From Klebsiella pneumoniae (GTDB lineage: Bacteria > Myxococcota_A > UBA9042): DNA of 64,000 nt. Positions 49,453 to 63,813 of the stretch are shown here, in pieces. The notes under the pieces were generated by a model. It made no database searches, was not told the DNA's origin, and saw nothing but the letters and a program-made list of their open reading frames with translations. The position numbers and the translations under genes were made by a program. The DNA lies in the NCBI GenBank assembly GCA_945889325.1, contig CAMDBH010000001.1, forward strand, positions 27,096 to 91,095, read 5' to 3'. Every line of letters begins with the position of its first letter. The stretch's first letter is position 1.

Positions 49453-51081
49453 GTGGCGCAAGTGCCTAAAATTCGCTTACAATCGCAAAGTGTTCTGCGA
49501 CAAGGATTGCCGTGGGCTTTGGCCACGGCTGTGCTCATTACGGCGGCGTATCCGCCTTGGTCGCTGTGGCCATTGGCCTTTTTTGCCTACGTGCCGCTGC
49601 TTTACTGGTTGCACAAACATCCAACGCCCCTGAAGCAGGCCGCGCTGCTCGGTCTGATTCCAGGCACGATTCTTCACGCGGGGGTTTTCTGGTTTCTAAT
49701 TCACACCATGGAAGCGATGAGTGGTTTCCCGCTGCCGCTGGCGATGGCCACCCTGGTCGGGTACGCGCTGGCCATGGGCGTGCATCAGGCCGTGTTCATG
49801 TTGGCGGTGCGTTTGGTATCTCAGAGCGAATTGTCCTTCAATCGCACGCTATTACAGGCACTGGCCTTGGCCACAGTGTATGCGGCGATCGAATTTGGCG
49901 TGCCCTACCTGTTTCCATGGTACTTGGGGAATGCGTTTTTCGACCAGCCGATGTGGATACAAACTGCTGAATTCATAGGTATTTGTGGCACAAGTCTGTT
50001 GGTCATGCTGTGCAATTTGTTGCTGACGCACGCGGCGTTGGCTAAGCAATGGCGCTGGCGTTTTGTGGCAATCGCGAGCGGTTTGCTCGTATTTATGGGC
50101 GCTTACGGCACGATGCGCATGAAACAAATCGATGCTGCGCCGGTACAGAAAACGCTCAAGACCCTGATCGTGCAAGCCAATGCCTCGCTCAAGGAAAAAT
50201 TGTCAGAAGGACGCGCGCGCATGCCGATGCTCGATCGCGCGGAAACAATCATTCGGCAAGCTGACTTAGGCGATCGCGATCTGGTGATCTTGCCAGAAGG
50301 GGCCATGCCATTCTTCTGGATTCCCGACGCCGTGGGTCCAGCGGCCCAAACGGAACGCAAGATCCCAACCCGCTCGCCACCGATCCTGCGCGAAGCCAAG
50401 CAACGCATGCTGACGTTGGTTCACGACGTAAACAAGCCAATTCTGCTGGGTAGTTTACGGCGGTTGGACCGGATGTGGGTGCAAGAAGCTCGCAACGCGG
50501 CGTTTTTGCAGTGGCCAGACGGACGGGAGCAGGTGTACGACAAGAAAATTCTGCTGCCTTTTGGCGAATATCTGCCGTTTACTTCGCTATTTCCGGCGCT
50601 CAAGGAGTCGATTCCGGGCGTGTCGCACATGGATCCCGGCACGGCCAGCGGCAAGATGGACGTCGCTGGCGTCAAAATATTGGTAAACATCTGTTATGAA
50701 GCGCTGTTTGCGAATTTCTTGCGGAGTGAAGGCTCGGACGCCGAAGTCCTGGTCAACCTGACCAACGACGTCTGGTTTGGGCCCGAACCGGCACCAACTC
50801 TGCATTTAATGGTACAACAGGCGCGCGCGGTGGAATTGCGCCGGCCGCTGCTGCGTTCGACGGTCACCGGTATCACCGTGCATGTCAGCGCCGACGGTGT
50901 GATGCACGATCCAACTGAACTTTATGTCGAAGCGACACGGCGTTATGACGCACAAGTCCGCGATCTGGATAGTCCTTATCGCCATTGGGGCGACGCGCCG
51001 ATGTGGCTGCTGACCTTGGGCAGCGTCGCGTTTTTGCTGCATCACAGCCTGCGGCAGCGCAAGGCCGCGAAAATATCTTGA
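49453..51081 (+). CDS. lnt: Apolipoprotein N-acyltransferase
   Basis: Multi-TM N-terminus and nitrilase triad motifs LPEG, YDKKILLPFGEY and ICYE, plus NLTNDVWFG. Confidence 0.93.
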   Translation: MAQVPKIRLQSQSVLRQGLPWALATAVLITAAYPPWSLWPLAFFAYVPLLYWLHKHPTPLKQAALLGLIPGTILHAGVFWFLIHTMEAMSGFPLPLAMATLVGYALAMGVHQAVFMLAVRLVSQSELSFNRTLLQALALATVYAAIEFGVPYLFPWYLGNAFFDQPMWIQTAEFIGICGTSLLVMLCNLLLTHAALAKQWRWRFVAIASGLLVFMGAYGTMRMKQIDAAPVQKTLKTLIVQANASLKEKLSEGRARMPMLDRAETIIRQADLGDRDLVILPEGAMPFFWIPDAVGPAAQTERKIPTRSPPILREAKQRMLTLVHDVNKPILLGSLRRLDRMWVQEARNAAFLQWPDGREQVYDKKILLPFGEYLPFTSLFPALKESIPGVSHMDPGTASGKMDVAGVKILVNICYEALFANFLRSEGSDAEVLVNLTNDVWFGPEPAPTLHLMVQQARAVELRRPLLRSTVTGITVHVSADGVMHDPTELYVEATRRYDAQVRDLDSPYRHWGDAPMWLLTLGSVAFLLHHSLRQRKAAKIS

Positions 51082-51153
51082 TATCTTGAACTATTTTGCT
51101 ACCTTCGCTGATTTGTTCGACCACGATCAGCCCAAGTGCGGCCAAGGACTCCG

Positions 51154-52308
51154 ATGACGAAGCGCAAATCAGCCAAACCCAAGGTGCAAACCGGCGACCG
51201 GCTGCAAAAATTTATCGCCACTTCGGGCGTTGCCTCGCGGCGATCGGCCGAAGAGTTGATCGCGCAAGGGCGGATCGAAGTCAACGGCGTGGTCGTGACC
51301 GAACCGGGTACGCGCATCGATCCGGAGCTGGATCAGGTGCGTTTCGATGGCGAAAAGCTCAAACCTCAATCGCAGCGGGTGGTTCTGCTGCTGCACAAAC
51401 CGGTCGGCTTTCTGTCGTCGGCCAAAGATCCCGACGGTCGACCGCTGGTTTATCATCTGGTGCCCAAGGATTTGGCGCTGCGCACGATCGGTCGTCTGGA
51501 TTTTAACACCGAAGGCGTGCTTTTGTTCACCAATGACGGCGAGTTGGCCGAACGACTCGGGCACGCGCGTTACAGCGTGCAACGCGTCTATGAGGCACGC
51601 GTGCGCGGCATTCCGACGGAAATGACGTTGGCTGCCCTGCGCCGCGGCGTGCGTCTGGAGGACGGACCGGCCCGCGTTGAGAGCGTGGAAGTCGTCAAAG
51701 CGACGGAAAATAACGCTTGGTTGCGCTTGGTTCTGGTTGAAGGGCGCAACCGAGAAGTGCGACGCCTGATGGAACGCGTCGGGCATCCCGTCGTGCGCCT
51801 GCGCCGCGTGGCCTTTGCGGGGTTGACAGTCGGCGCGCTCAAGCACGGCGATTGGCGGATTTTGTTGCCCGAAGAAGTCGATGCCTTGCAAACCCGTGGC
51901 CACGTCGGCGCTTTTGAATTGCCTCCCGATCCACGGCGCAAAGCTGGCGCGCAACGCCTGGAGCGAGAAGCCAAGCGCGGGCAAATCCGCGCGGAAACGC
52001 GCGACAAGCCCACGGCACCGCGATCGACGGCCGTCAAACCGCCGACCCGGGGACGCAAGCGTTTGGTGGATGATCCGAGCGCACCGCCAGCGCAAGATCG
52101 CAGCCAGCGCAAAGCCCTGCAGCAGCAACGCATTTCCGATCGCCGCCGCGGCTCTGCGCAGGAAATTCTGGAACGGGAAACCGACGGCCATCGGCGCACG
52201 GCGCGAAAAAAGATTGTCCCGCTGGGCAAGACGCCGCAGCCCGCCGGCAAATCCGAACGCGCGGCCCCGATCAGCAGCGGCAAGGCCCCGCGCCGAGGTC
52301 GCAAGTGA
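51154..52308 (+). CDS. rluB: RluB/RsuA-family pseudouridine synthase with basic C-terminal tail
   Basis: RLQKFIA..SRR (S4 domain), GRLDFNTEG, TNDG and EGRNREVRR. Confidence 0.85.
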   Translation: MTKRKSAKPKVQTGDRLQKFIATSGVASRRSAEELIAQGRIEVNGVVVTEPGTRIDPELDQVRFDGEKLKPQSQRVVLLLHKPVGFLSSAKDPDGRPLVYHLVPKDLALRTIGRLDFNTEGVLLFTNDGELAERLGHARYSVQRVYEARVRGIPTEMTLAALRRGVRLEDGPARVESVEVVKATENNAWLRLVLVEGRNREVRRLMERVGHPVVRLRRVAFAGLTVGALKHGDWRILLPEEVDALQTRGHVGAFELPPDPRRKAGAQRLEREAKRGQIRAETRDKPTAPRSTAVKPPTRGRKRLVDDPSAPPAQDRSQRKALQQQRISDRRRGSAQEILERETDGHRRTARKKIVPLGKTPQPAGKSERAAPISSGKAPRRGRK

Positions 52309-53408
52309 TTCCACAGCGAATTTGCTGCGTTGTCGGCGCACGTCCCAATTTCATGAAAGTCGCGCCGGTCTATCTGGCGCTCAAACGCCGCGATCTGAAC
52401 GTGCGCTTGGTGCACACCGGGCAACACTACGACCCGAAAATGTCGAGTGTTTTTTTTGACGATTTGGGGATGCCGAGGCCGGACGCCTTTCTGGGTGTCG
52501 GATCGGGCAATCATGCCGAGCAGACCGCCAAGGTGATGACACTTTTCGATCGCGATTGCGAAGACTTCCAGCCCGAACTGGTGCTGGTGGCCGGTGACGT
52601 CAATTCCACGATCGCCTGTGCGCTCGTCGCCAGCAAACGCGGCATCGCGGTCGGGCACGTTGAAGCGGGGCTGCGTTCACGCGATTGGGCCATGCCCGAA
52701 GAGATCAACCGCATTTTGACCGACGCCTGTAGCGATCTGCTTTTTACGCCCTCGCGCGACGGCGACGCCCATTTGCGCGCTGAAGGGGTGGCCGAGCACC
52801 GCATTCATTTCGTCGGCAACTGCATGATCGACAGTCTGCGTACGCACTTGGCGCGGGCCTTGTCGCTGGGGACGGCAAAACATCTGGGCTTTGACCCGGG
52901 CGCCTACGCAGTGGCGACATTGCACCGGCCTTCCAATGTCGACGATCCAGCGCAACTGAAACGTTTGCTCGACGCGCTGGCCCAGGTGGCCAAACATTGC
53001 CCGGTGTTGTTTCCGATCCATCCCCGCACAAAAAAATCCATAATCGACGCGGAGTTGCAGGTTGCTGATGCGATCTCACTGGTGGAGCCGATGGGCTACT
53101 TGCAGTTTTTGGGCGCCATGGCGCAAGCGAAGTTTGTGCTGACGGATTCCGGCGGCATTCAAGAAGAAACCACAGCGCTAGGGGTGCCGTGTTTGACCCT
53201 GCGCGCCAACACCGAACGACCGGTGACTGTCAGCGAAGGCAGCAATATTTTGCTTGGCCTTGATACGGCTGCCATTTTTCCCGCCGTGCGCAACATTCTG
53301 TCTGGACGCGCCAAAACCGGCCAGATACCCGAATTGTGGGATGGACACGCCGCGGAGCGCGTCGCCGACGTCATAAGCGGCGGTTTCCGCACGTTACTCG
53401 AGGGTTAG
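52305..53408 (+). CDS. wecB: UDP-N-acetylglucosamine 2-epimerase (non-hydrolysing)
   Basis: GARPNFMK, HTGQHY, HVEAGLRS, TDSGGIQEE and TERP. Confidence 0.95.
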   Translation: MIPQRICCVVGARPNFMKVAPVYLALKRRDLNVRLVHTGQHYDPKMSSVFFDDLGMPRPDAFLGVGSGNHAEQTAKVMTLFDRDCEDFQPELVLVAGDVNSTIACALVASKRGIAVGHVEAGLRSRDWAMPEEINRILTDACSDLLFTPSRDGDAHLRAEGVAEHRIHFVGNCMIDSLRTHLARALSLGTAKHLGFDPGAYAVATLHRPSNVDDPAQLKRLLDALAQVAKHCPVLFPIHPRTKKSIIDAELQVADAISLVEPMGYLQFLGAMAQAKFVLTDSGGIQEETTALGVPCLTLRANTERPVTVSEGSNILLGLDTAAIFPAVRNILSGRAKTGQIPELWDGHAAERVADVISGGFRTLLEG

Positions 53409-53423
53409 CTGTACAAACGCAAG

Positions 53424-55058
53424 ATGACAGTTGCCGTAGTCGTGTTGGCGGTCGCAGTTGTGGCTGCGGCGGGGCTGTTTCTGCTAAAACCTATTGAGCC
53501 TGAAGCGTTTATACTTGAGCACGTCGTGCCCGAGGACGCCGACGCCTTGCTCTGGCTCGATTCGCTCGCCCCATTGGCGCAAAGTTTGGCGCAGTTAGCC
53601 GCGAGGGTTCCCGGCACCGCGGGGATTTTGGACGCAGGCAAACTGGTTCTCGGCGTCGATCTGCGCGATGCCGACGCGGTTGCGCGCGCAGGTCTGCGCA
53701 ATGATGCGGGGATTTGTGTCTTTCGCTGGCACGGCGCGCTGTGGCTGATTCTACCGATTACTTCGCCCGAGGGTGGGGCACACCTTTCTAGGTTGCTGCA
53801 GGGCCGCGGTTACAGAGTGGGGCCAGGTCTGGGTGCATTCGAAGATCTGCAAAATCATTGGGACATTTTTGATCGCCAACAGGACAAGGTCGCAATAGCG
53901 CACTTGTTCCAGTCCGGCGCGGCGGCGATCTTGCGCTGGCAAATTGCGCCTCGGCCCGCAGACCACGCCAGCGCCGAGTACACTGCTTGGCGCAAAGCCG
54001 CACACATGAAGGAAAAAGCGCTGCACGGCGCCCAAGGGCAAATGCACCTGCGCATGGCGTGGCAAAAAGAGGGCCCAGAAATTGCCGCTTTGCACACGGC
54101 GCTGGGGATTGGCAACTTGGTATTTAGCGGCGCGTTGGACAAAATAGTGAGGATGGAGGCTGACTTTGATATGGCCGCCGGCAAGCCGACCTTGCGAATT
54201 GAATTGGCCTGTCAGCCGGGCGATCTGGCTGAGATTGCAAAATTTCACCAGAATTTTGTCGTGTCTACCGGACCCGGTCTGCTGGATCTCGGCGCGTTGC
54301 TGCCCGATGAAACGCCGTTGTTTTGGCGCGGGCGTCTGAACCCCGCGATTTTGAACATGTTACCCTCGACGCTGCGCGATCGATTCCTGCCCGCGGCGCT
54401 GCTCAGTTTTTGGCATCCTTCCTTGCAAGGGGTCGACGCGCGTTCTGACTTGATCGCGTTTCTGGACGGTCAGGTCGCCGCCGGGTTGCTGGGTGTTGCC
54501 GACGATTTCCCTCTAGATCCCTATCTTTGGACGCCGGCAACCTTGCGCAAAGGCCTGCGGGCTTTCGTGGCCGTGTCGCTTCAAACTGACACCCAAGCCG
54601 CCCATTTCATGGACCGCGTCCGGTCGGCGATCGACACCAGCAGCGAAAAGGCCGTTTCGGTTCAAATGCTTGAATTTAGCGGCTTTTCTGTGGCCGATCC
54701 ACAGGGACCTTGGCTGATGTTGCGCAAGGACGCCCAAGTCGTTTTGGTCAGCGGCATCGGGGCTCAAGACGACTTGCAACACATTGCAGACGGCAAATTC
54801 CCCAGCCTGCAGGCGGCAGTGCGCGGCGAGCTGGAGAAATCCGCGGTCCACGGCGCCCAGCTCTGGACCGCACTGCTCACGAGTACGCCGCGCATCGCGC
54901 GTTCGCTGCGCCGCCGCGGCGTGCCAGATTATGTAGTGCAAATGCTAGCATCGGTCGCTGCCGTGGCCACGACTGTGCAATGGACGCAGGACGGCCTGCA
55001 GATTCGTTTGGCGCTGCGTCCGAGCGAACTCGATGCCGATGCAGGGGAGGCGCCGTGA
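53424..55058 (+). CDS. Hypothetical membrane-anchored protein
   Basis: 544-aa ORF in operon orientation with an N-terminal hydrophobic helix. No family recognised. Confidence 0.65.
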   Translation: MTVAVVVLAVAVVAAAGLFLLKPIEPEAFILEHVVPEDADALLWLDSLAPLAQSLAQLAARVPGTAGILDAGKLVLGVDLRDADAVARAGLRNDAGICVFRWHGALWLILPITSPEGGAHLSRLLQGRGYRVGPGLGAFEDLQNHWDIFDRQQDKVAIAHLFQSGAAAILRWQIAPRPADHASAEYTAWRKAAHMKEKALHGAQGQMHLRMAWQKEGPEIAALHTALGIGNLVFSGALDKIVRMEADFDMAAGKPTLRIELACQPGDLAEIAKFHQNFVVSTGPGLLDLGALLPDETPLFWRGRLNPAILNMLPSTLRDRFLPAALLSFWHPSLQGVDARSDLIAFLDGQVAAGLLGVADDFPLDPYLWTPATLRKGLRAFVAVSLQTDTQAAHFMDRVRSAIDTSSEKAVSVQMLEFSGFSVADPQGPWLMLRKDAQVVLVSGIGAQDDLQHIADGKFPSLQAAVRGELEKSAVHGAQLWTALLTSTPRIARSLRRRGVPDYVVQMLASVAAVATTVQWTQDGLQIRLALRPSELDADAGEAP

Positions 55059-55090
55059 GAGCGTGTGAAAAATCCTTTTTTCACGCTCTC
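55057..55090. repeat. 34-bp palindrome overlapping a stop codon
   Basis: gagagcgtgtgaaaaatccttttttcacgctctc. Confidence 0.7.
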
Positions 55091-55215
55091 GATTGGGGTC
55101 TGGTATTGGCAATTTCTGCCAATCGACCCAAAGTGGGCTCGGATTCAAATTTCTGGTTCCAGTAATATCATTATCTTACGGAGCGTCCATGCAGAAACTG
55201 CTAATACCTGACCCC

Positions 55216-55255
55216 GCTCAGAGGCTGTGAAATGAATATTTCACAGCCTCTGAGC
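55216..55255. repeat. 40-bp palindromic dispersed repeat, copy 1
   Basis: gctcagaggctgtgaaat-gaat-atttcacagcctctgagc, with perfect 18-bp arms. Confidence 0.9.
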
Positions 55256-55996
55256 GAGCTGCCACAAATTCCCGCACCCATAGCGCAACCCGTTGGCGCA
55301 ACTGCACTATTGGCGATCGACGCGCGACAATTGAACCGCACTTTTGCCATTGTCGGCGCGACCGTCCAAGCGCTGGTGAACGTCGACTTGGCGATTGCGC
55401 CTAAGGAAATCGTTGCGATCATCGGGCGTTCTGGCGCGGGCAAATCGACGTTGCTCAATCTGATCGGCGCGCTGGATCGTCAATACCAAGGCGAGTTGCG
55501 GGTCTTCGGTCAGGAGTTGAAGTCGCTGTCCGATGCGCAGCTATCGCGTTTTCGCAATCGACAAATCGGCTTTGTTTTTCAGGCATTCCAGTTGTTACCC
55601 AACATTTCCGTCGGTGAAAATGTCATGCTCCCCGCCTATTTTGGCAGCGACTTGGCCCAAAGCGAGATCGAACGCCGCGCGCGCTGGCTGCTCGGTGAGA
55701 TGGAACTGTCGGCACGATTTGATCAAAACCCGCAACAAATGTCGGGCGGCGAGAGGCAGCGCGTCGCCATTGCCCGCGCCCTGTTGCTGGAGCCACCGCT
55801 GCTGGTCTGCGACGAACCGACGGGCAGCCTCGACGCCGCGACGGCGCAACAAATCTTGCAACTATTCAATAGTATTCGGGATAAATTTGGGACAACCTTG
55901 GTGATGGTGACACACGATCCGTCAGTTGCGGCCGCAGCCGATCGCGTCATTACGCTTGATCGCGGCCTTGTCGCCAGCAACACGGAGGTCGCGTGA
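55232..55996 (+). CDS. LolD/MacB-type ABC ATPase (5' end altered by the palindrome)
   Basis: GRSGAGKST, IGFVFQ, MSGGERQRVAIARAL, DEPTGSLD and VTHD. Confidence 0.9.
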   Translation: MNISQPLSELPQIPAPIAQPVGATALLAIDARQLNRTFAIVGATVQALVNVDLAIAPKEIVAIIGRSGAGKSTLLNLIGALDRQYQGELRVFGQELKSLSDAQLSRFRNRQIGFVFQAFQLLPNISVGENVMLPAYFGSDLAQSEIERRARWLLGEMELSARFDQNPQQMSGGERQRVAIARALLLEPPLLVCDEPTGSLDAATAQQILQLFNSIRDKFGTTLVMVTHDPSVAAAADRVITLDRGLVASNTEVA

Positions 55997-57672
55997 AGCT
56001 GCGGCGCCTTGTGGGCTTGATCGTCGGCAATCTGATCGCCAGCCGCGTCCGCGCGCTGCTGGCGATGGTCGGTATCGTGGTCGGCACTGCTTTGCTGGTG
56101 TTTTTCCTAGGTCTTGGTCAGGGCTTGCGCGAACGTGTGCTCAACCGGATTTTTCCGGTGAACCAGTTGGAAATTGAGCCCCAAGCCGTTCAATTGTTTG
56201 GCACCCAGCAGGTGATCGGCCAAGCGCCGCTCGACGATGCACGCGTGAAACAAGTGGCGGCGATTCCCGGGGTGATGCGCGCGTTTGGCAAGCAAAAATC
56301 GAGTTTTCCCGCGCGGTTATGGGGCGGAAAAGAAATTTTGGGCTACAACCTTTTTACGGAAGCCTTTTTCGACGGCATGCCCGTCGGCATCCTCGCCGAT
56401 GAACTCGCTGAATTCGAAGATGTAACCGGCAAACGCGCCAAAGCCGCCAAGCGCAAAGTCCAACGCTGTGACGTCGACATCGATTGCGACGCCGGTGCAC
56501 AATGCCATGAAAGTGCATGTGAAACTGTGATCTGGGCGAGGCTTTGGCAAGACAACCCGCTGGTGCAGTTGCCGTGTGGCAATGACGGCGACTGCCTCGA
56601 CGGGACTTGCGCGCAGGGCATCTGCCATCGCGCGGATGCGCCCGCGCCGCAGCGCTGCAGCGTGCCCGCCAGCGCTGGCAACGGCCGCGACATGGATTTT
56701 GACAAGGAACACGGGCAGCTAGCGGTCGCGTGCGCCGAACCCGGCGGCTTTTGCAAGGGCGTCGGCACCTGCCCCCCCAACCAGTACTGCGCCACCGACA
56801 ACCCCGACAGCGTGTGGGGCTGGTGCGAATCGCCGCTGCCCGCTGTGCTCAATCCGCTGTTGCTGGAAGTGTTTAACTCCGATATGGCGCGATCGCTGGG
56901 TGCCGCGCCGGTGGGATCTTTGGCCGTGCTCTATGGCGTGCGTTTTCACGTCGCGCTGGGCGATTCGTTCTTCACCAAAGACGCCGAGCGCAACCGCCAA
57001 CAGTACAAGCAGGCGATCGTGGTTGGTTTTTCGCGCAAAGCCCCAGAACTCGGCCTAGCAATGCCGCTGTCTGTAGTCCGCCACTACAATGCGCGCCTGC
57101 GCGGCGCTGAAGCTGCACGGCTGTTCGACGCTGTTTTGCTGGAAACCTCTGACAACCAAGACATTCCTTCGGTCGTTGCGGCCACCGAGTCTCTCGGCTT
57201 CTCTTTGAGCCGCAAGTCTCGCGCCGCGCGCACGTTTGGTACCGTCGTGCTTGTGGTGTCGCTGGCGCTGATGTTGTTGGCAGCGATCGTGCTCGTGGTG
57301 GCGGCGACCCAGATTGCTCAAACCTTTGCCATGCTTGTGCATGAACGGCGCAAAGAGATCGCCGTGTTGCGGGCGCTAGGGGCTGCCCAAACCACCATCG
57401 CAGGTCTTGTTTTGGGCGAAGCGGCGGCGATCGGCCTTATCGGTGGATCTCTCGGATCCGCAGTGGCTTATGCCGCGGCTGCGGCCGTCGACTTCGCCGC
57501 CAAGACCGTGCTTGAACGCGTCCCATTGGTTCCCGACGGCTTTTTTGTGTTTCCGTGGTGGGCGGCGCCGCTGGCGGTCAGCGTGGCACTAATTTTTTGC
57601 TGTGCGGGTGCGCTGTTACCCGCATTGCGCGCCGCGCGGGTCGATCCGGCGCGGGTGCTGTCCGAATCTTAG
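55993..57672 (+). CDS. FtsX/MacB-type ABC permease with Cys-rich periplasmic insertion
   Basis: TM1 LAMVGIVVGTALLVFFLGLG, ERRKEIAVLRALGA, LPALRAARVDP and an internal Cys-rich block. Confidence 0.85.
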   Translation: MKLRRLVGLIVGNLIASRVRALLAMVGIVVGTALLVFFLGLGQGLRERVLNRIFPVNQLEIEPQAVQLFGTQQVIGQAPLDDARVKQVAAIPGVMRAFGKQKSSFPARLWGGKEILGYNLFTEAFFDGMPVGILADELAEFEDVTGKRAKAAKRKVQRCDVDIDCDAGAQCHESACETVIWARLWQDNPLVQLPCGNDGDCLDGTCAQGICHRADAPAPQRCSVPASAGNGRDMDFDKEHGQLAVACAEPGGFCKGVGTCPPNQYCATDNPDSVWGWCESPLPAVLNPLLLEVFNSDMARSLGAAPVGSLAVLYGVRFHVALGDSFFTKDAERNRQQYKQAIVVGFSRKAPELGLAMPLSVVRHYNARLRGAEAARLFDAVLLETSDNQDIPSVVAATESLGFSLSRKSRAARTFGTVVLVVSLALMLLAAIVLVVAATQIAQTFAMLVHERRKEIAVLRALGAAQTTIAGLVLGEAAAIGLIGGSLGSAVAYAAAAAVDFAAKTVLERVPLVPDGFFVFPWWAAPLAVSVALIFCCAGALLPALRAARVDPARVLSES

Positions 57673-57794
57673 GAGTCGTGCAAAAATAACTCGATCGAGT
57701 TATTTGAACGCAAGGAGCCGCGAACCGCATAGGTGAGCTTGGCGACCCCAGCAAAACTGTCAGACAAATGTGCAAGTTATTCTTGCACAGCGCC
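57672..57794. mobile_element. 123-bp MITE with TTA target duplication
   Basis: Left end ggagtcgtgcaaaaataact versus reverse-complemented right end ggcgctgtgcaagaataact (16/20). TTA lies at 57669-57671 and 57795-57797. Confidence 0.7.
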
Positions 57795-58379
57795 TTAGCG
57801 AAACGGGATCGACAGGACAAAGGCCGCGTCCGCCCGATTTTCACCACTGATATCTGCGTCTTGCTGACCCAATTGCCCCAAGACAATCGCGTGGATCGTT
57901 TGTTGCAGCCACTGCCACGTCGGGTCGTGGACAAATTCACCGCGCAACGTGACGACAATCCCCCAAGGCTCGGCCAGCGAGGAAACTTCGAGCTCCCTGT
58001 AAATATAGCGATAAGTTTCTTCAATCCGCTTGTAGGCCTGCCGCACGCCCATCGCCCGCAGGCCCAAACGCCCCAGCATGCCGACCTCGCCATGCACAAA
58101 TGCGTCCAACTTCACAGCGAGTTGCACAAAATCGCCTTGCGCGGCCAACTCGCGCAAACCGTGCAAAAGCGCGATCTGCACCCCCAACGGCAACCAAACG
58201 TCGTTGGCAGGGCATTGGGACAGGTGCTGCTCAGTTAGCCCTGTAAATTCGCGCAATTCATCCGGATTGACGCCAAGCTCACGCGCCAGACGCGGCCAAT
58301 CGCGCAGCGCAACCCCGCGCACGTGCCCCGGCATCGCGAGCCACTGCGACAATACGCCGTTGTCAGTAGTGTCGCTCAA
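57795..58379 (-). CDS. Hypothetical protein, possibly DUF2378/H-NOX-like ligand-binding fold (start 58379 TTG or 58334 ATG)
   Basis: GHVRGVAL...DVWLPL pattern, helical N-part and beta C-part, directly downstream of the prenyltransferase fusion. Confidence 0.5.
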   Translation of the reverse strand: MSDTTDNGVLSQWLAMPGHVRGVALRDWPRLARELGVNPDELREFTGLTEQHLSQCPANDVWLPLGVQIALLHGLRELAAQGDFVQLAVKLDAFVHGEVGMLGRLGLRAMGVRQAYKRIEETYRYIYRELEVSSLAEPWGIVVTLRGEFVHDPTWQWLQQTIHAIVLGQLGQQDADISGENRADAAFVLSIPFR

Positions 58380-60597
58380 GCACGTACCAACCAAAGGCCC
58401 GCAACATGACTTTGGGCAGCGAATCCTCAACCAAGGGGCTCAGTTGCTGCCAAGCGGCTTCGACCAGTTCGGCGGCTTGATCGGCGCAGGCCTGCAAAGC
58501 ACCGCACTGCTCCAAAAGCGCGATCGCTTCCTCGATGAGCGCTTGATCATTGGTTTTTTGCTGGACCGTGTGCCACAACCATTGGCGTTGCGGCAGGTCG
58601 AGCAGCGCCATGGCTTTGGCGATGGGCAGCGTAACCTTGCCGTGGGCAATGTCTTCACCGCGGGCCTTCAAATTGCCGCGAAAACCGCGCAAATTCAGCA
58701 CATCGTCGATGATTTGGAAGGCCAAGCCGACCGATTCAAAAAAACGCCCGACGCCCTCGATCTGGGCCTCACTGCCGTGACCGGCTACGGCGCCCATGCG
58801 CGCCAAACTAGCGGCAGGCGTTGCGGTTTTCAGCCGGTGGACGGCCAGCACACGCCGCACAAGTTCATCGCCCTGCCCGTTGGCCACGGCCACCGGCATG
58901 ATGCGATCCAAGCCGTCCAAATCCAACGCTTGACCGGCATGGCCGGCGCGCAAACTTTCAAAATAAAGGTCGTAGATCAGTAACTTATCAGCCGACGACA
59001 TTTTGTCGGACACCAGCAGTTTTTGCCCCAAAAAGTAGCAGGCCGTACCAGCGTTGATCGCCAGTGCCTCGCCGTAGATCAAATGCGCGGTCGGTCCACC
59101 GCGCCGAACCATCGATTTGTCCTGAACATCGTCGACAATGAGGGAGCCTACGTGCATCAATTCCGGCATCGCCAACCACTGCACGTACTCGCGCGAATCG
59201 CCGCCAACCACGTCGCAGCAAGCCAAAGCCGCATAACTGCGCCAAGATTTGCCACCTCGATCGGTGATATCGCGGACGGGATCGACCATGGTGCGGGCGA
59301 ATTGTTCAATATCGACGCCATCCATGGCCTGCGGACGTTGGGCGCTGGCGATCAGATCGCGGGTTTGTTCCCACGAGGGTCGGCGCGGCAGCAAGGCTTC
59401 CACAGATTTGCGCACCTGCTTGCCAACTGCTTGGAAAAATCCATCCAAATCAGCAATATCGCCAAGGCCGCTGCGTTCAACGTAGCCCAAGCCGGTGATC
59501 GGCACACCGTTCTTGCTACCCGCGACGCTGCTGCGCCCCTCCCAAAAGGCGGGTTTTGAAATTAGTGTAATAAATTCTTGATCTTCCAAAACCGCGTCGA
59601 TCGACAATGCCAAGCCGGCTGACGGAATCTCCAAGCGCCAATGGGTCGGATATTCCTGAAAAGTTCGGGTGCTGACCCAAGTTTTGTCTTCGACAAAGGC
59701 GACGTCGCTGTGCTCGCTCCGGCTGCCATCGGCGGCCACGACAATGGCGCGGGTGGCGTGCAGTCGCCCGTCTTTGCCGTGGATCAACGCATACGCCGTG
59801 ATTTCACTGCCATCGTCCAGTTGGGCGCCGAACCAGTTCCAGCCGATGTCCTCGTCCTCTTGCACCTTGGGCGTGTTTTTGTTGTGGCGGCCAAATTCGT
59901 GATCGTACCAACCTTGGGCGCTGGCGATTTTCTCTTCACCGCCAGCCAGAAGGATTTTTCCCGTGACTTCACAGCGCGGGAGGAAGTAATAAAACATGTC
60001 CTCGCCCGAAACACCGCGAACGACACCATTTTCCCCATGACGAATCGGGCCTTTGCGCGGGGTCAGCGTCAGATCACAGCCCAATTGCAAACGTTCATGC
60101 CGCAAATGCAGCGCGTAACTGCCGTCGGGGTTTTTGGCGAAAGTATTGCCGTCGAAATCCAGTTCGAGTGCATTTTCATTCACAAATACGTCGCCGATGA
60201 ACATGCGATCGGGATACGGCACCTTGCCCGTGTTGAGCACTTCGCGCATGGCGCGGCGCAGTCGATTGTCTTTTGTGCCTTCGCCGCGCTCGATCTGGCC
60301 CAGCCCCATGCGCGGTGCATCCTTGTCAACCCGCGATTCCGAAATATATTTTCCGCTGGAAGCATCGGTCAACGCCCATGTCATAGAATGAGCGTGGCGC
60401 AACGCCAAAGTTTTTTCATCTTGGGCTTTGACAATGCGAAAGAACGACGCAAAAATTGAAATATTACGGCGGCTTTCGGTCACGCCGTGGGCGTTGACGT
60501 ACCACCATTCGGTCGTTGAAGAGGCGTGCGGCAGATCGTGCAGCGCCAAGTCAATCGGCCCGTCGTGGGGCCAATCGAGGGGAAACGTCGAGGTCAT
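58363..60597 (-). CDS. Fusion protein: AttH/CrtC-like beta-barrel domain + trans-isoprenyl diphosphate synthase
   Basis: N-half has TEWWY, GWYDHEFG, GWNWF..QLDDG, YPTHW, DQE, FWEG and GYVE. C-half has GGKSWR, DDVQD..RRG, GQALD, KT, FQIIDDVLN and GEDI..GKVT. GGAG precedes ATG 60597. Confidence 0.88.
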   Translation of the reverse strand: MTSTFPLDWPHDGPIDLALHDLPHASSTTEWWYVNAHGVTESRRNISIFASFFRIVKAQDEKTLALRHAHSMTWALTDASSGKYISESRVDKDAPRMGLGQIERGEGTKDNRLRRAMREVLNTGKVPYPDRMFIGDVFVNENALELDFDGNTFAKNPDGSYALHLRHERLQLGCDLTLTPRKGPIRHGENGVVRGVSGEDMFYYFLPRCEVTGKILLAGGEEKIASAQGWYDHEFGRHNKNTPKVQEDEDIGWNWFGAQLDDGSEITAYALIHGKDGRLHATRAIVVAADGSRSEHSDVAFVEDKTWVSTRTFQEYPTHWRLEIPSAGLALSIDAVLEDQEFITLISKPAFWEGRSSVAGSKNGVPITGLGYVERSGLGDIADLDGFFQAVGKQVRKSVEALLPRRPSWEQTRDLIASAQRPQAMDGVDIEQFARTMVDPVRDITDRGGKSWRSYAALACCDVVGGDSREYVQWLAMPELMHVGSLIVDDVQDKSMVRRGGPTAHLIYGEALAINAGTACYFLGQKLLVSDKMSSADKLLIYDLYFESLRAGHAGQALDLDGLDRIMPVAVANGQGDELVRRVLAVHRLKTATPAASLARMGAVAGHGSEAQIEGVGRFFESVGLAFQIIDDVLNLRGFRGNLKARGEDIAHGKVTLPIAKAMALLDLPQRQWLWHTVQQKTNDQALIEEAIALLEQCGALQACADQAAELVEAAWQQLSPLVEDSLPKVMLRAFGWYVLERHY

Positions 60598-60752
60598 CAG
60601 CACTCCGTCACCAAGTTTGCGCGGCGGCGCCGGCCAAAGCGGCCGCACACGCGGCGCGCGCGGGCGATCGTGTGCCACATTCCGCACTTTTTCGCTACTG
60701 AACGCAGAACGTCCGCGAGGATTGCAGCAAAATGCCGCAAAATCACAAATAA

Positions 60753-61802
60753 TCAATCAAGCGACGTTGGCGGGTGGCGAAGTTGCCATGCACCCAACAG
60801 CGCGAGAACGGGCGCATCCAGCTGCGGCGCCACCAAATGCCTATCCTGTTGATCTGCTAGCAAATGATCCATCGGCAGCAAGGTGTCCGTTAGCCAAGTC
60901 GCGCGCCAAATCCGCCGTCGGCGTGTGGACGCGTCGGCCCCTCGCTCGGTCGGTTCCGGCGCGGCGATTGCCGGCCAAGGTCCTGGTTTGGCTGCAATTT
61001 CGTCGTCCGTAATCTGCCCGAGCAGGCTGGCTGTGCCGCGCAGCGTCCACAAGCCGCCGCAAGCGGTCGGCGCCGGCCACGGCAATTTGTCGACAAGCCA
61101 CTGTTCTTGCAGGACATTAATCGGCAGCCGAAAAAGGCCACCTGTGCCACGGGCCAGCGACTGCGCCGACTTTTCAATCAGCAACGCCAGATGCGCGCAC
61201 AGTTGATCGTGCGGAATTTCGGCGATCTCAGGCGGAATCTCGCGATAATAAGCGCGATTCTCTGGCGCAATCTGCAAGGGCGCCCACTGCACGCCGCGAT
61301 CGCTGAATTGCGCGACTACGCCCGCGGGTACGCTTTGGCGCGGCGCATCGCTGCCGACAATTGACTCCAACACCGTCGGATCACTAGCAATACACGTCGC
61401 GACTGAATCGATCGATGCCCACAATCGGCCCACGCCCATCGGATCGCGGGCGGCCAGAACCTGCCGTTGCCCCAAGTGAGCCACCGCCAGCGCGCCCTGC
61501 CAGCGCAGTGCCCCCAAACCGCTGGGACCTAGGTGAGCGATGGTTTCAGTCGCAATTGCACAATGATCTTGCAATTCTAGGACTATTCCGCGCACGGCCA
61601 AAGCCTGCTGCGCCGCGATATCGTTGGCCAATGCGCCGCTTAGGCAGCCGATCGCGCGGCCGTCCGAACTGCGTCGCTGTTCACCGCGGATGGCCAAAGC
61701 GATTCGGCCGGCCGAAATCACGTCGTGATCTTGCAGATTTTCCAGCCATCGCCGCACCAACGCGCTGTCATTTGGCCACATCGCCACAAAATTCGATCGC
61801 AT
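60753..61802 (-). CDS. Degenerate asparagine-synthetase-B-like protein
   Basis: GCLSGALAN, LAARDPMGVGRL, IASDPTVL and VPAG resemble the class II GATase domain, and VAPQLDAPV resembles the R.PFLD tail. There is no N-terminal Cys and no SGGLDS. Confidence 0.5.
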   Translation of the reverse strand: MRSNFVAMWPNDSALVRRWLENLQDHDVISAGRIALAIRGEQRRSSDGRAIGCLSGALANDIAAQQALAVRGIVLELQDHCAIATETIAHLGPSGLGALRWQGALAVAHLGQRQVLAARDPMGVGRLWASIDSVATCIASDPTVLESIVGSDAPRQSVPAGVVAQFSDRGVQWAPLQIAPENRAYYREIPPEIAEIPHDQLCAHLALLIEKSAQSLARGTGGLFRLPINVLQEQWLVDKLPWPAPTACGGLWTLRGTASLLGQITDDEIAAKPGPWPAIAAPEPTERGADASTRRRRIWRATWLTDTLLPMDHLLADQQDRHLVAPQLDAPVLALLGAWQLRHPPTSLD

Positions 61803-61914
61803 CCGCCGATCATGCCACACCGGCGGCGACGGGCCAAATCGGCCGAATTGTGCTTGAAAAGCGTTGCTCGAATTCGTATACTGCGCGGTTGGCGCTGATG
61901 CCGGAGGTTGCCCC

Positions 61915-63813
61915 ATGTTCGCACGTTCGACCCAAAATGTTCTGTCATTTGTTGCCGTTGTCGCATTGGCCGTAGTCGCCGCATGCGGCAGCGCAACCCC
62001 GTCAGGCACCGGCGGCGGTACGGCGTGCAAAACCAACAACGATTGCGATTCTGGGCAGTATTGCGATGCCGGCACGCTGCTGTGCACAACCAAGCAATGC
62101 GACGACGCCGCAGGCAAGAAGTGCGAGAATGGCAAAAAATGCCAATTGTTTCAGTGCGTAGCGTTGACACAAACCGATGCTGGCACGACAGATTCGGTCA
62201 GCGACAGCGTAAGCACCGACGGCAGCAATCCGGTGGCGGACGTGCCGCCTGGAACGGACGCGCCAGTTGCGGTCGACAACGGCCCACCGGCCGACACGGG
62301 CCCAGCGCCCAAAGATCTTTCCTGCGGCGCGTGCAGCGCCGACGCTGACTGCAAGGACGCCGCCTATCAATGCATTACGCTGTTGTCTGGCAAGTTCTGC
62401 GGCAAAAAGTGTGCAGGGCCTGCAGATTGCGCGGCGGGTTACAAATGCGACAACGCCAGTTCGGATCCCAAAAATACCCAGAAAAATTGCGTATTGCCCA
62501 GTTTTGACTGCGGCGGTTGCGCGGCGGCTGGTTGCGGCGCGGGACAAAAATGCAATTTGAAGGCCAATCCGCCGGTCTGCGCCGACGTCAAAGCCGTGTG
62601 CGATGAATGCGTGCAAGACGCCAACTGCGACGCGGGTTTGCGCTGCGTGAAAATGGGCGACAAGAAGATTTGTGCCCCCGACTGCTCGGCTGGCCAAGCT
62701 TGCCCTGACAAAAGCAGCTGCCAAGCGTTCGTCGTCGGCAAGGTTTGCGCTTTTGCTGCGGCGGCCTGCTGTTATGGCGCAAGCTGCACCGTGGACACCA
62801 AGTGCGCCGCGTGCCCCGACAAATGCGTGGCCGGCCTTTGCGTCGAATGCAACAAGGACGCGGATTGCAAGGCTGGAACTTGCAACGTCAATACCCACAC
62901 CTGCATTGTGGACAGCGCGTGCCCGGCCGACAAGCCGATCAAATTGGCCTCGACCAAACAGTGCGTCGAATGCAGCAACGACACCCATTGCGCTTCCAAG
63001 CCCAACAACAAGAACAAATGCAACGCGGTAACCAACGTTTGCGAAGCGGCCAGCGCCAACAACGAATGCGCCCCGTGCGCCGGCACAGCGTTCCCCGGCT
63101 GCGTGCAACTCAACGGCGTTTGGACTTGCGTTGAATGCATCACCGACAACGATTGCGACGCGAAAAAAGCGGGCACTTGTTCAGGCACGACCTATAGTTG
63201 CAGTGGATCGATCGGGCCAGGCACCGGACCCGCAAAAGGCAGCTGTAAGGTCGACGGCGATTGCGCCAACGGGCCAAACACCACGTTCGTGCTGGCCTGC
63301 GACGCGCCGACGGGCTTGTGTTTCGACAAGGAAGGTCACTGCGACAATGTCGTGGCATTCTGCAATGCTGGCAAAGGTTCCAGCTGCGTGGACGCCGCGG
63401 GTTTGGGCCTGCCGCCGGGTCTGCCGGGCCTGCCCGGCGGTGGTGGCGCGGGCGGCGCGCTCAAAGCCTGTTCGTGCCCGCTCACACCTGCGGGAGCCGG
63501 CGGGGGCGTCAGTCCTGCCTGCAAGGCCCTTGAGGCGATTCTGCCCAATCTGAAGAATTGTGATTGCGCCAAAGATCCCAAAAGTCCGGACTGTCAGGCC
63601 CCCCTGATCGGCGCCTGCTGCGGCGGCGGCGGCGCCGGCGGCATCGGCGATTTGCTCGGTATGTTGGCGTGCTTACAGCCCAAACCCAATCCGGTAGAAG
63701 CCTGCTTCGGCGGAAATTGCACCGATAGCGGTTGCTTGACCTCCATGATGGGCGGCGGTCAAAACAAGGCCACGGGCGAGGGATCTTGCGCCAAGGGCGG
63801 CATCGGCCCTTAA
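61915..63813 (+). CDS. Large Cys-rich lipoprotein
   Basis: GGAGG before ATG 61915, lipobox VAAC, repeated C..D.DC and CVEC..D..C modules, and a Gly-rich C-terminus. Confidence 0.8.
   Translation: MFARSTQNVLSFVAVVALAVVAACGSATPSGTGGGTACKTNNDCDSGQYCDAGTLLCTTKQCDDAAGKKCENGKKCQLFQCVALTQTDAGTTDSVSDSVSTDGSNPVADVPPGTDAPVAVDNGPPADTGPAPKDLSCGACSADADCKDAAYQCITLLSGKFCGKKCAGPADCAAGYKCDNASSDPKNTQKNCVLPSFDCGGCAAAGCGAGQKCNLKANPPVCADVKAVCDECVQDANCDAGLRCVKMGDKKICAPDCSAGQACPDKSSCQAFVVGKVCAFAAAACCYGASCTVDTKCAACPDKCVAGLCVECNKDADCKAGTCNVNTHTCIVDSACPADKPIKLASTKQCVECSNDTHCASKPNNKNKCNAVTNVCEAASANNECAPCAGTAFPGCVQLNGVWTCVECITDNDCDAKKAGTCSGTTYSCSGSIGPGTGPAKGSCKVDGDCANGPNTTFVLACDAPTGLCFDKEGHCDNVVAFCNAGKGSSCVDAAGLGLPPGLPGLPGGGGAGGALKACSCPLTPAGAGGGVSPACKALEAILPNLKNCDCAKDPKSPDCQAPLIGACCGGGGAGGIGDLLGMLACLQPKPNPVEACFGGNCTDSGCLTSMMGGGQNKATGEGSCAKGGIGP

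Follow-up and report, generated by a model that had tools for sequence, protein, structure and literature searches.

A putative two-domain isoprenoid enzyme joining an AttH/CrtC-type double barrel to a trans-prenyl diphosphate synthase

Hydratases of the AttH/CrtC type add water, in the Markovnikov sense and without any cofactor, to the terminal isoprene double bond of their substrates (PMC4717167, PMC12402844, bioRxiv 10.1101/2025.10.20.683597). In CrtC, which hydrates the far-end prenyl unit of C13-C20 acyclic terpenoids with any head group, D268, W110, W283 and W285 line the cavity between two barrels in which the terminal prenyl unit is protonated (PMC12402844); this conserved Asp and the three Trp residues are essential (PMC12402844, PMC4717167), and exchange of H239, W241, Y266 or D268 for alanine abolishes activity (PMC4717167). 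An archaeal AttH-like protein hydrates the tails of glycerol dialkyl glycerol tetraethers (GDGT) to give hydroxy-GDGT (bioRxiv 10.1101/2025.10.20.683597). Here, a gene is described in which a double barrel of this type is continued, within one polypeptide of 744 residues, by a trans-prenyl diphosphate synthase (in the following, the fusion). The gene lies in a 64,000-nucleotide stretch of contig CAMDBH010000001.1 (the window), and its product appears to be a real variant of bifunctional isoprenoid enzyme with no published function, for which we infer the activity set out below. Both of its halves look catalytically competent, as judged from their sequence motifs. The gene and its parts are:

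60603..60606, minus strand: GGAG, a ribosome-binding-like motif 5 nt before the ATG of the fusion gene, read from the sequence.
58363..60597, minus strand: gene of the fusion (744 aa), with an N-terminal double barrel of AttH/CrtC type and a C-terminal trans-prenyl diphosphate synthase (open reading frame, translation, Pfam).
59890..60513, minus strand: CrtC N-terminal lipocalin domain (PF07143), residues 29-236; Pfam 68.8 bits against a cut-off of 22.5, E 1.2e-18.
59476..59853, minus strand: Lipocalin_9 second barrel (PF17186), residues 249-374; Pfam 88.8 bits against a cut-off of 26.2, E 4.4e-25.
58516..59289, minus strand: polyprenyl_synt domain (PF00348), residues 437-694; Pfam 154.4 bits against a cut-off of 27, E 4e-45, with NCBIfam and PDB matches.
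59119..59133, minus strand: first Asp-rich motif DDVQD, residues 489-493, no insertion, with G484 and S485 at positions -5 and -4; D489, D490, D493, G484 and S485 invariant.
58693..58707, minus strand: second Asp-rich motif DDVLN, residues 631-635; D631 and D632 invariant.

The gene runs from an ATG at 60597-60595 to a TGA at 58365-58363 as a single uninterrupted frame of 744 codons. Its longest frame extends upstream to a TTG at 60756, and homologues begin to align at residues 1-8 of the ATG form; GC content and third-position GC resemble those of the neighbouring genes, so that no sign of a foreign gene is seen. A preliminary description of the window had reported an unbroken frame of 744 aa, the lack of a signal peptide, a series of AttH/CrtC motifs in the N-terminal half and an intact trans-isoprenyl diphosphate synthase in the C-terminal half, and all four statements stand. 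Calling of open reading frames (ORFs) and translation return the same frame; the N-terminus, MTSTFPLDWPHDGPIDLALHDLPH, inspected by eye and with no predictor, shows no hydrophobic signal-peptide core; and each of the motifs listed there was located, namely HASSTTEWWY (24-33), MFYYFLPR (201-208), WYDHE (230-234), GWNWFGAQLDDG (252-263), YPTHW (316-320), EDQE (338-341), FWEG (351-354) and GYVE (371-374) in the barrel, and DDVQD (489-493), RRG (498-500), GQALD (555-559), KT (590-591) and DDVLN (631-635) in the synthase. The Pfam search that it had suggested places CrtC, Lipocalin_9 and polyprenyl_synt all well above their cut-offs.

The barrel half belongs to the AttH/CrtC superfamily by the scores of both barrel hidden Markov models (HMMs), which exceed their cut-offs, and by the match of the N-terminal 380 residues to the solved AttH of Nitrosomonas (2ich; E 3.5e-19, 72 bits). 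A weaker match is to 7a0q, a 'CrtC domain-containing protein' (E 1.2e-6, 31 bits), and the nearest stand-alone barrel relatives outside the fusion clade share 25-34% identity; as a literature lead, 7a0q/7a0t gave no associated paper. In the alignments with 2ich and 7a0q, D232, the acid of the WYD motif (codon 59902-59904, minus strand), stands opposite the Asp of WLDREW and of WYDRQW, respectively, and W253/W255 (GWNWF), Q340-E341, W352-E353-G354 and E374 face identical residues. In an alignment of 58 homologues (48-95% identity), on which all statements of conservation are based, W31, W32, D232, E234, W253, W255, Q340, E341, W352, E353 and E374 are invariant (58/58), and so are H24, W74, D110, D130, H187 and M201-F202-Y203. 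The preliminary description had held that a barrel devoid of conserved cavity residues among homologues would speak against a bifunctional enzyme; since the acidic and aromatic residues of the barrel are invariant in all 58 sequences, this objection fails. From the order of the motifs and the AttH/7a0q alignments, D232, W253 and W255 are the probable counterparts of D268, W283 and W285 of CrtC; W230 lies two residues before D232, where CrtC carries a Tyr (Y266), the equivalent of the Asp itself being present.

The synthase half is placed in PF00348 by its score, by both Asp-rich motifs and by the Lys and Arg residues (K450, R453, K590, K644) that bind isopentenyl diphosphate (IPP). Invariant in the alignment are K450, R453, D489, D490, D493, R498, R499, Q556, D559, K590, D631, D632, K644 and D649, and the GGKxxR motif and the later Lys/Asp residues of trans-prenyl diphosphate synthases are also intact. 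The best NCBIfam models all score far under their cut-offs (encapsulin-cargo polyprenyl transferase, 134 bits against 450; IdsA, 130 bits against 468). Type-III geranylgeranyl diphosphate (GGPP) synthases are recognized by a first Asp-rich motif with no insertion, small residues at positions -4 and -5 and a DDxxN second motif, and all of these features are found here (HVGSLIVDDVQD, with G484 and S485 invariant).

How closely the synthase resembles eukaryotic enzymes depends on the part considered. The designation 'eukaryote-style', given to it in the preliminary description, holds from the first Asp-rich motif to the GQxxD region. For residues 470-565, the top 20 solved matches (50.6 to 34.8 bits) consist entirely of GGPP synthases from animals or fungi and of prenyltransferase (PT) domains of fungal bifunctional terpene synthases, e.g. 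6v0k (50.6 bits), 9q3i (48.8 bits), human 2q80 (46.8 bits) and yeast 2dh4 (40.9 bits), and bacterial farnesyl diphosphate (FPP) synthases follow from about 33 bits. In these alignments HVGSLIVDDVQDKSMVRRG pairs with HTASLLIDDIQDQSILRRG, and Y521-F522 and H553 pair with the YF and H residues which we take, from the literature on the yeast enzyme and not as a result of this work, to limit the product to C20. The designation does not appear to hold for the whole domain. Here the decaprenyl synthase 3mzv, a bacterial enzyme, leads the solved matches with 89.8 bits, together with an octaprenyl synthase and GGPP synthases of plants, the human and yeast GGPP synthases scoring about 60 bits; with bacterial long-chain and plant enzymes as its best solved matches, the synthase is not simply of eukaryotic type. 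Similarly, the DDxxN form of the second motif stands for this protein (DDVLN), N635 being kept in at least 90% of the 58 homologues although not invariant, but does not extend to the wider family, in which a regular-expression count over 70 long cluster representatives (see below) gives 38 with N against 18 with D. Because the chain-length region resembles that of type-III GGPP synthases, C20 (GGPP) is the most likely product, as a best guess and not as a finding.

An AlphaFold2 model of the full 744 residues, built from the 58-sequence alignment, has a mean predicted local distance difference test score (pLDDT) of 91.6 and a predicted template modelling score (pTM) of 0.89; the only low-confidence stretch, residues 241-247, is in the loop between the Asp and WxW, and the barrel part is all-beta according to DSSP, its Pfam matches being confined to the barrel families. 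Such a pTM for a two-domain protein suggests that the mutual position of the domains is confidently fixed in the model, and internal stops are absent from every full-length relative among the related genomes; on these grounds together the fusion reads as one unit.

The same architecture recurs throughout the relatives. All of the best 120 database homologues (57-95% identity) have the same three Pfam domains, and they go by no other names than 'polyprenyl synthetase family protein' and 'GGPP synthase/predicted secreted hydrolase'. Complete or split between contigs, the fusion is found in 23 of 41 related genomes, i.e. in the source genome, in 19 of 24 others of the same family and in 3 of 16 from other families of the class; among the 41, it was not found in any of the three genomes of one genus, and one (G015) has a C-terminal fragment only. 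The survey across taxa that had been suggested, carried out on species-representative genomes, gave 145 stretches encoding a relative and finds the fusion mostly in Myxococcota, and also in Bacteroidota, a cyanobacterium, Acidobacteriota and others. Eighty of these 145 were kept and, together with the own locus, make up the 81 loci of the comparisons below; by the labels of these 80, 8 are Bacteroidota, 1 a cyanobacterium, 2 Acidobacteriota, 1 a Patescibacteria metagenome-assembled genome (MAG) and 1 a Thermoplasmata MAG, the remaining 67 carrying Myxococcota-type, 'delta'/Proteobacteria or unspecific or doubtful labels. In a FastTree phylogeny of 79 of the 81 sequences, from which two of under 650 aa were left out, the 13 rows from outside Myxococcota group into a single clade with the exception of the Thermoplasmata row, which stands apart on a long branch; the tree being rooted at its midpoint, no direction of transfer is claimed. 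A search with the barrel only returned 163 cluster representatives (50% identity, E<=1e-30) among 1.84 billion, and among the best 150 of them 70 are at least 700 aa long, i.e. fused. Stand-alone, barrel-only forms may exist (P0139 and P0144, on long contigs). A 257-aa barrel piece (P0169) and a 390-aa piece with Lipocalin_9 and synthase (P0215) share one 1.16-Mb contig, so that the fusion of this genome may have been split or frameshifted.

That no characterized example was known had been stated in the preliminary description, and neither a published study nor a function of the fusion was found in the literature searched. Two leads proved unrelated: a paper on hopanoid transport, in which the lipocalin-like HpnT is a DUF2147 protein, and the vinigrol cyclase VigB, which has a helical fold. 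Cultured carriers exist (Spirosoma panaciterrae DSM 21099, Telluribacter humicola KCTC 42819 and Iningainema tapete BLCC-T55), which makes the fusion a good experimental target.

The reading that we favour, tentatively and with somewhat less than even confidence, is that of a cytoplasmic two-step enzyme, in which a GGPP-type synthase and an acid-catalysed far-end hydratase would together yield a tertiary-hydroxylated C20 isoprenoid; its chemical steps, all of which we infer, would be the following. Judging from its intact motifs, the C-terminal domain would condense IPP with an allylic diphosphate, most likely stopping at C20. By homology, the omega end of the chain, or of a close derivative, would then enter the cavity between the two barrels, where Asp232 would protonate the terminal trisubstituted double bond, Trp253, Trp255, Trp31 and Trp32 would stabilize the tertiary cation, and water would quench it to the tertiary alcohol, in the manner of CrtC, of kievitone hydratase and of the hydroxy-GDGT synthase of archaea. 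A C20 isoprenoid with a hydroxyl at its omega end would result; elsewhere it would be glycosylated, sulfated, methylated or oxidized, and in this lineage it may be bound, as by a carrier or sensor, by the product of the putatively co-transcribed downstream gene c4 (see below).

Whether the chain is hydrated or cyclized had been left as two options in the preliminary description, and the genes fused to or adjacent to relatives of the fusion bear on the choice. In P0293 and P0323 a GT1-type (EryCIII-like) glycosyltransferase precedes barrel and synthase in a protein of about 1050 aa; in P0286 and P0294 a sulfotransferase, about 550 aa of unassigned sequence and barrel plus synthase make up about 1500 aa; and in the cyanobacterial locus a GT28-like glycosyltransferase follows the fusion. 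Five Bacteroidota loci (L080, L084, L089, L095, L096) have an operon that comprises, in varying order, the fusion, a GT28-like glycosyltransferase, two P450s and a 760-aa LMF1/HTTM-like membrane protein, with an FkbM methyltransferase in 3 of the 5, and that looks like a terpenoid gene cluster. Since glycosyl- and sulfotransferases need a hydroxyl acceptor, they favour a hydratase over a hydrocarbon-forming cyclase. The five operons may also be read in favour of a prenyltransferase joined to a protonation-initiated cyclase, in which a nearby double bond or a hydroxyl within the molecule captures the cation to give a cyclic diterpenoid: two P450s and an FkbM-type methyltransferase are typical of the tailoring of cyclized terpenes, the acid and the Trp residues would suit cyclization equally, the layout mirrors that of the fungal PT-cyclase chimeras, whose PT domains best match the chain-length region, and the authors of PMC4717167 liken the CrtC site to that of squalene-hopene cyclase. 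A cyclase is nevertheless unlikely, in view of the requirement of the transferases for a hydroxyl, of the excerpts of the CrtC papers, which describe hydration only (PMC4717167, PMC12402844), of the literature searched, in which no C-C cyclization by the AttH/CrtC fold was found, and of the lack of any P450 near the gene in the window or in the examined Myxococcota loci. Thus, of the two options, hydration appears to be favoured by the transferases, and the terpenoid synthase/cyclase half of the proposal seems the less likely one.

Several points weigh against the two-step hydratase. The correspondence with CrtC residues rests on the order of the motifs and not on an alignment with Rubrivivax CrtC; the spacing from the Asp to WxW is 21 residues in the fusion versus 15 by CrtC numbering, i.e. 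the loop between them is six residues longer; and His239 and Trp241 of CrtC (HxW) are without a clear counterpart in the barrel. In the synthase, the whole-domain score is nearer to the bacterial long-chain enzyme 3mzv than to human or yeast GGPP synthase, and the small residues at -4 and -5 may leave room for a product longer than C20. The transferases could instead act on the primary alcohol that loss of the diphosphate would leave. Finally, c4 is absent from 52 of the 81 loci, and the core function therefore does not depend on it.

Of bearing on whether the barrel is catalytic at all is P0281, a relative of 888 aa with a PX domain in front, in which decay has reached the WYD/WxW motifs of the barrel as well as the two Asp-rich motifs. 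PX domains are typical of eukaryotes. P0281 may be a pseudoenzyme, and the joint decay of its motifs suggests that the two activities are kept or lost as a pair, within one pathway. This does not agree with a non-catalytic barrel, i.e. a lipid-binding cap that would shield the chain, control its length or pass the product to a membrane partner, a role for which a candidate is at hand in the genes of an ABC (ATP-binding cassette) ATPase and a MacB/FtsX-type permease (55232-57672, plus strand), which lie just downstream and are convergent to the fusion-c4 pair. The name AttH is understood to come from an ABC-transporter locus. The synteny with the ABC/FtsX genes is confined to close relatives (4 of 12 loci in one comparison, and 6 of the 81 loci for cluster cl8), and, although the lipocalin/calycin fold is known for lipid carriage (PMC2954199), a carrier needs no invariant buried Asp flanked by Trp residues, and the invariant residues are those that are catalytic in CrtC (PMC4717167, PMC12402844). 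A mere cap is decidedly unlikely.

A further explanation is suggested by the Pfam label CrtC and by some database records, in which fragments are named 'carotenoid 1,2-hydratase', namely that the fusion is a carotenoid enzyme made of CrtE (GGPP supply) and CrtC (1,2-hydration of acyclic carotenoid ends). The remark in the preliminary description that no carotenoid genes are nearby agrees with the ORFs scanned at 51136-63813, among which there are none. The crt cluster of the own genome is outside the window, on a different contig (C4:43463-50991, locus L106), and contains a CrtD-like oxidase, an RPE65-type oxygenase, a lycopene cyclase, CrtI and a phytoene synthase (CrtB); the latter is read in two overlapping frames (50025-50561 and 50446-50991), which indicates either a frameshift or a fault of the assembly. 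Beside this cluster there is no GGPP synthase, and the one other prenyl synthase of the 84%-complete own assembly is FPP synthase-like, so that in this organism the fusion may feed GGPP to carotenoids. A squalene-hopene cyclase was not found in the same 84%-complete genome. Across relatives the fusion does not track carotenoid genes. CrtI is above its curated cut-off in 20 of the 41 related genomes; it is present in 13 of the 23 fusion-bearing relatives and absent from 10 (completeness 58-100%), it is present in 6 of 17 genomes without the fusion, and 7 fusion-bearing relatives have a separate prenyl synthase beside crtI. Moreover, fusion and crt cluster are on different contigs, the lycopene cyclase of the cluster makes cyclic ends, so that no 1,2-hydratase is needed, and the barrel scores 72 bits with AttH versus 31 bits with 7a0q. 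A dedicated carotenoid enzyme is, in our judgement, very improbable.

The fusion is followed by the gene c4, and the features concerned are:

57795..58334, minus strand: c4, 179 aa from its ATG (translation; alternative TTG start at 58352).
57769..57789, minus strand: terminator-like hairpin and T-run, 6 nt past the c4 stop (consensus scan).

c4 begins 31 bases past the stop of the fusion, on the same strand, and no terminator-like site was called between the two by the consensus scan; terminator-like sites in total are not above chance (7 found versus 5.3 expected), and so it is only by its position that the hairpin is suggestive. By iterated HMM search, c4 is present in 29 of the 81 loci, always within 600 nt of the fusion and not found elsewhere in the same stretches of 5-18 kb; it is directly downstream on the same strand in 25 loci, convergent in 1 and divergent upstream in 3, and is found in 24 of 66 loci when at least 700 nt are required on each side. 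A single-sequence search of the 41 related genomes gave 15 hits, of which 13 abut the fusion and one is 25 kb off, the remaining weak hit being in a genome that lacks the fusion. Mapped onto the tree of the fusion, the presence of c4 requires at least 8 changes, versus a mean of 23.2 in shuffles, which indicates that it is clustered on the tree and not strictly inherited. The gene evolves fast, with 18-32% identity where the fusion keeps 57-68%. Its homologues, where named, are 'hypothetical' (at least 5 proteins), and Pfam and NCBIfam scans (E up to 10 and up to 1) give chance-level rows only.

The model of c4 is confident (pLDDT 94.5, pTM 0.86), and its nearest solved folds are H-NOX domains (Foldseek probability 1.00, best E 3.5e-4, TMq 0.55-0.65) and, in VirS, a regulator of AraC type, the part that binds the ligand; the ESM Atlas rows comprise DUF2378 (TM 0.72), a cluster that includes V4R, and the sensor regions of histidine kinases and of chemoreceptors. 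H-NOX domains carry a heme-binding motif with a proximal His. Among the 29 c4 sequences only W13 and G96 are invariant, and so a heme-ligating His is not conserved. From the fold of the model, we read c4 as a putative binder of a hydrophobic ligand, and hypothesize that this ligand is the product of the fusion enzyme. A prediction of the complex of fusion and c4 has a score of 0.00 and a mark of 0.32, and no verdict is taken from it.

A search for a functional neighbour shared by all lineages found none. Apart from c4, the neighbours are lineage-specific: Ppx/GppA, a glutathione S-transferase, a short-chain dehydrogenase/reductase, an FMN reductase and a family-less ORF of 649 aa. The last (61864-63813, plus strand), upstream, divergent and conserved in 14 of the 81 loci, has no Pfam family, has as sole match a weak one to the outer-membrane exchange protein TraA (E 0.0025), and overlaps the longest frame of a GATase_7-like gene (60753-62135, minus strand) upstream of the fusion. 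A conserved, family-less ORF of 544 aa (53424-55058) precedes the ABC/FtsX genes.

New here are the linkage with c4, the independence from carotenoid genes and the glycosyltransferase- and sulfotransferase-fused versions. If the two-step hydratase is true, it would provide a new route to omega-hydroxylated, then glycosylated, sulfated or oxidized, diterpenoid lipids; its barrel would be a cofactor-free, regioselective alkene hydratase acting on a prenyl diphosphate, of interest for biocatalysis (PMC12402844); and the rigid body of PT and hydratase would be a new instance of chain synthesis coupled to chain modification. c4 may connect a fold of H-NOX type with an isoprenoid as ligand. A bolder version, to which we give little credence, would have a beta-barrel 'protonase' replace the helical cyclase, as a new class of bifunctional terpenoid enzyme, and make a hydroxylated or ring-closed C20 product, a diffusible signal or a specialized lipid, that in Myxococcota is read or carried by the heme-less, H-NOX-like c4; c4 would then be a receptor of H-NOX fold that senses a terpenoid where its relatives sense a gas.

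In comparison with known systems, c4 shares a common fold with H-NOX, V4R and DUF2378 proteins and differs from H-NOX in having no invariant heme histidine, in matching no Pfam or NCBIfam model and in being tied to the fusion gene. The barrel has the double-barrel Pfam domains in common with CrtC (EC 4.2.1.131; Rubrivivax gelatinosus, Thiocapsa roseopersicina), kievitone hydratase and the archaeal Hgs, and, judged from the order of the motifs and the AttH alignment, the conserved Asp, flanking Trp residues, QE and WEG in common with CrtC/AttH-like hydratases; unlike CrtC, it is joined to a synthase, is without a signal peptide and is unlinked to carotenoid genes. With the type-III GGPP synthases (human 2q80, yeast Bts1 2dh4) the synthase shares the uninserted first motif, the small residues at -4 and -5, the YF and H residues and DDxxN, whereas it differs from them in its bacterial host and in whole-domain scores that favour bacterial long-chain and plant enzymes. 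The closest parallel in layout is with the fungal chimeras (fusicoccadiene synthase, variediene synthase, Penicillium copalyl diphosphate synthase), in which one polypeptide also combines GGPP formation with a second, isoprenoid-modifying domain; there, however, a class I or II cyclase of alpha-helical fold takes this second place, whereas in the fusion it is taken by a beta-barrel of the AttH/CrtC type, and the order of the domains differs as well, the modifier being N-terminal and the prenyltransferase C-terminal.

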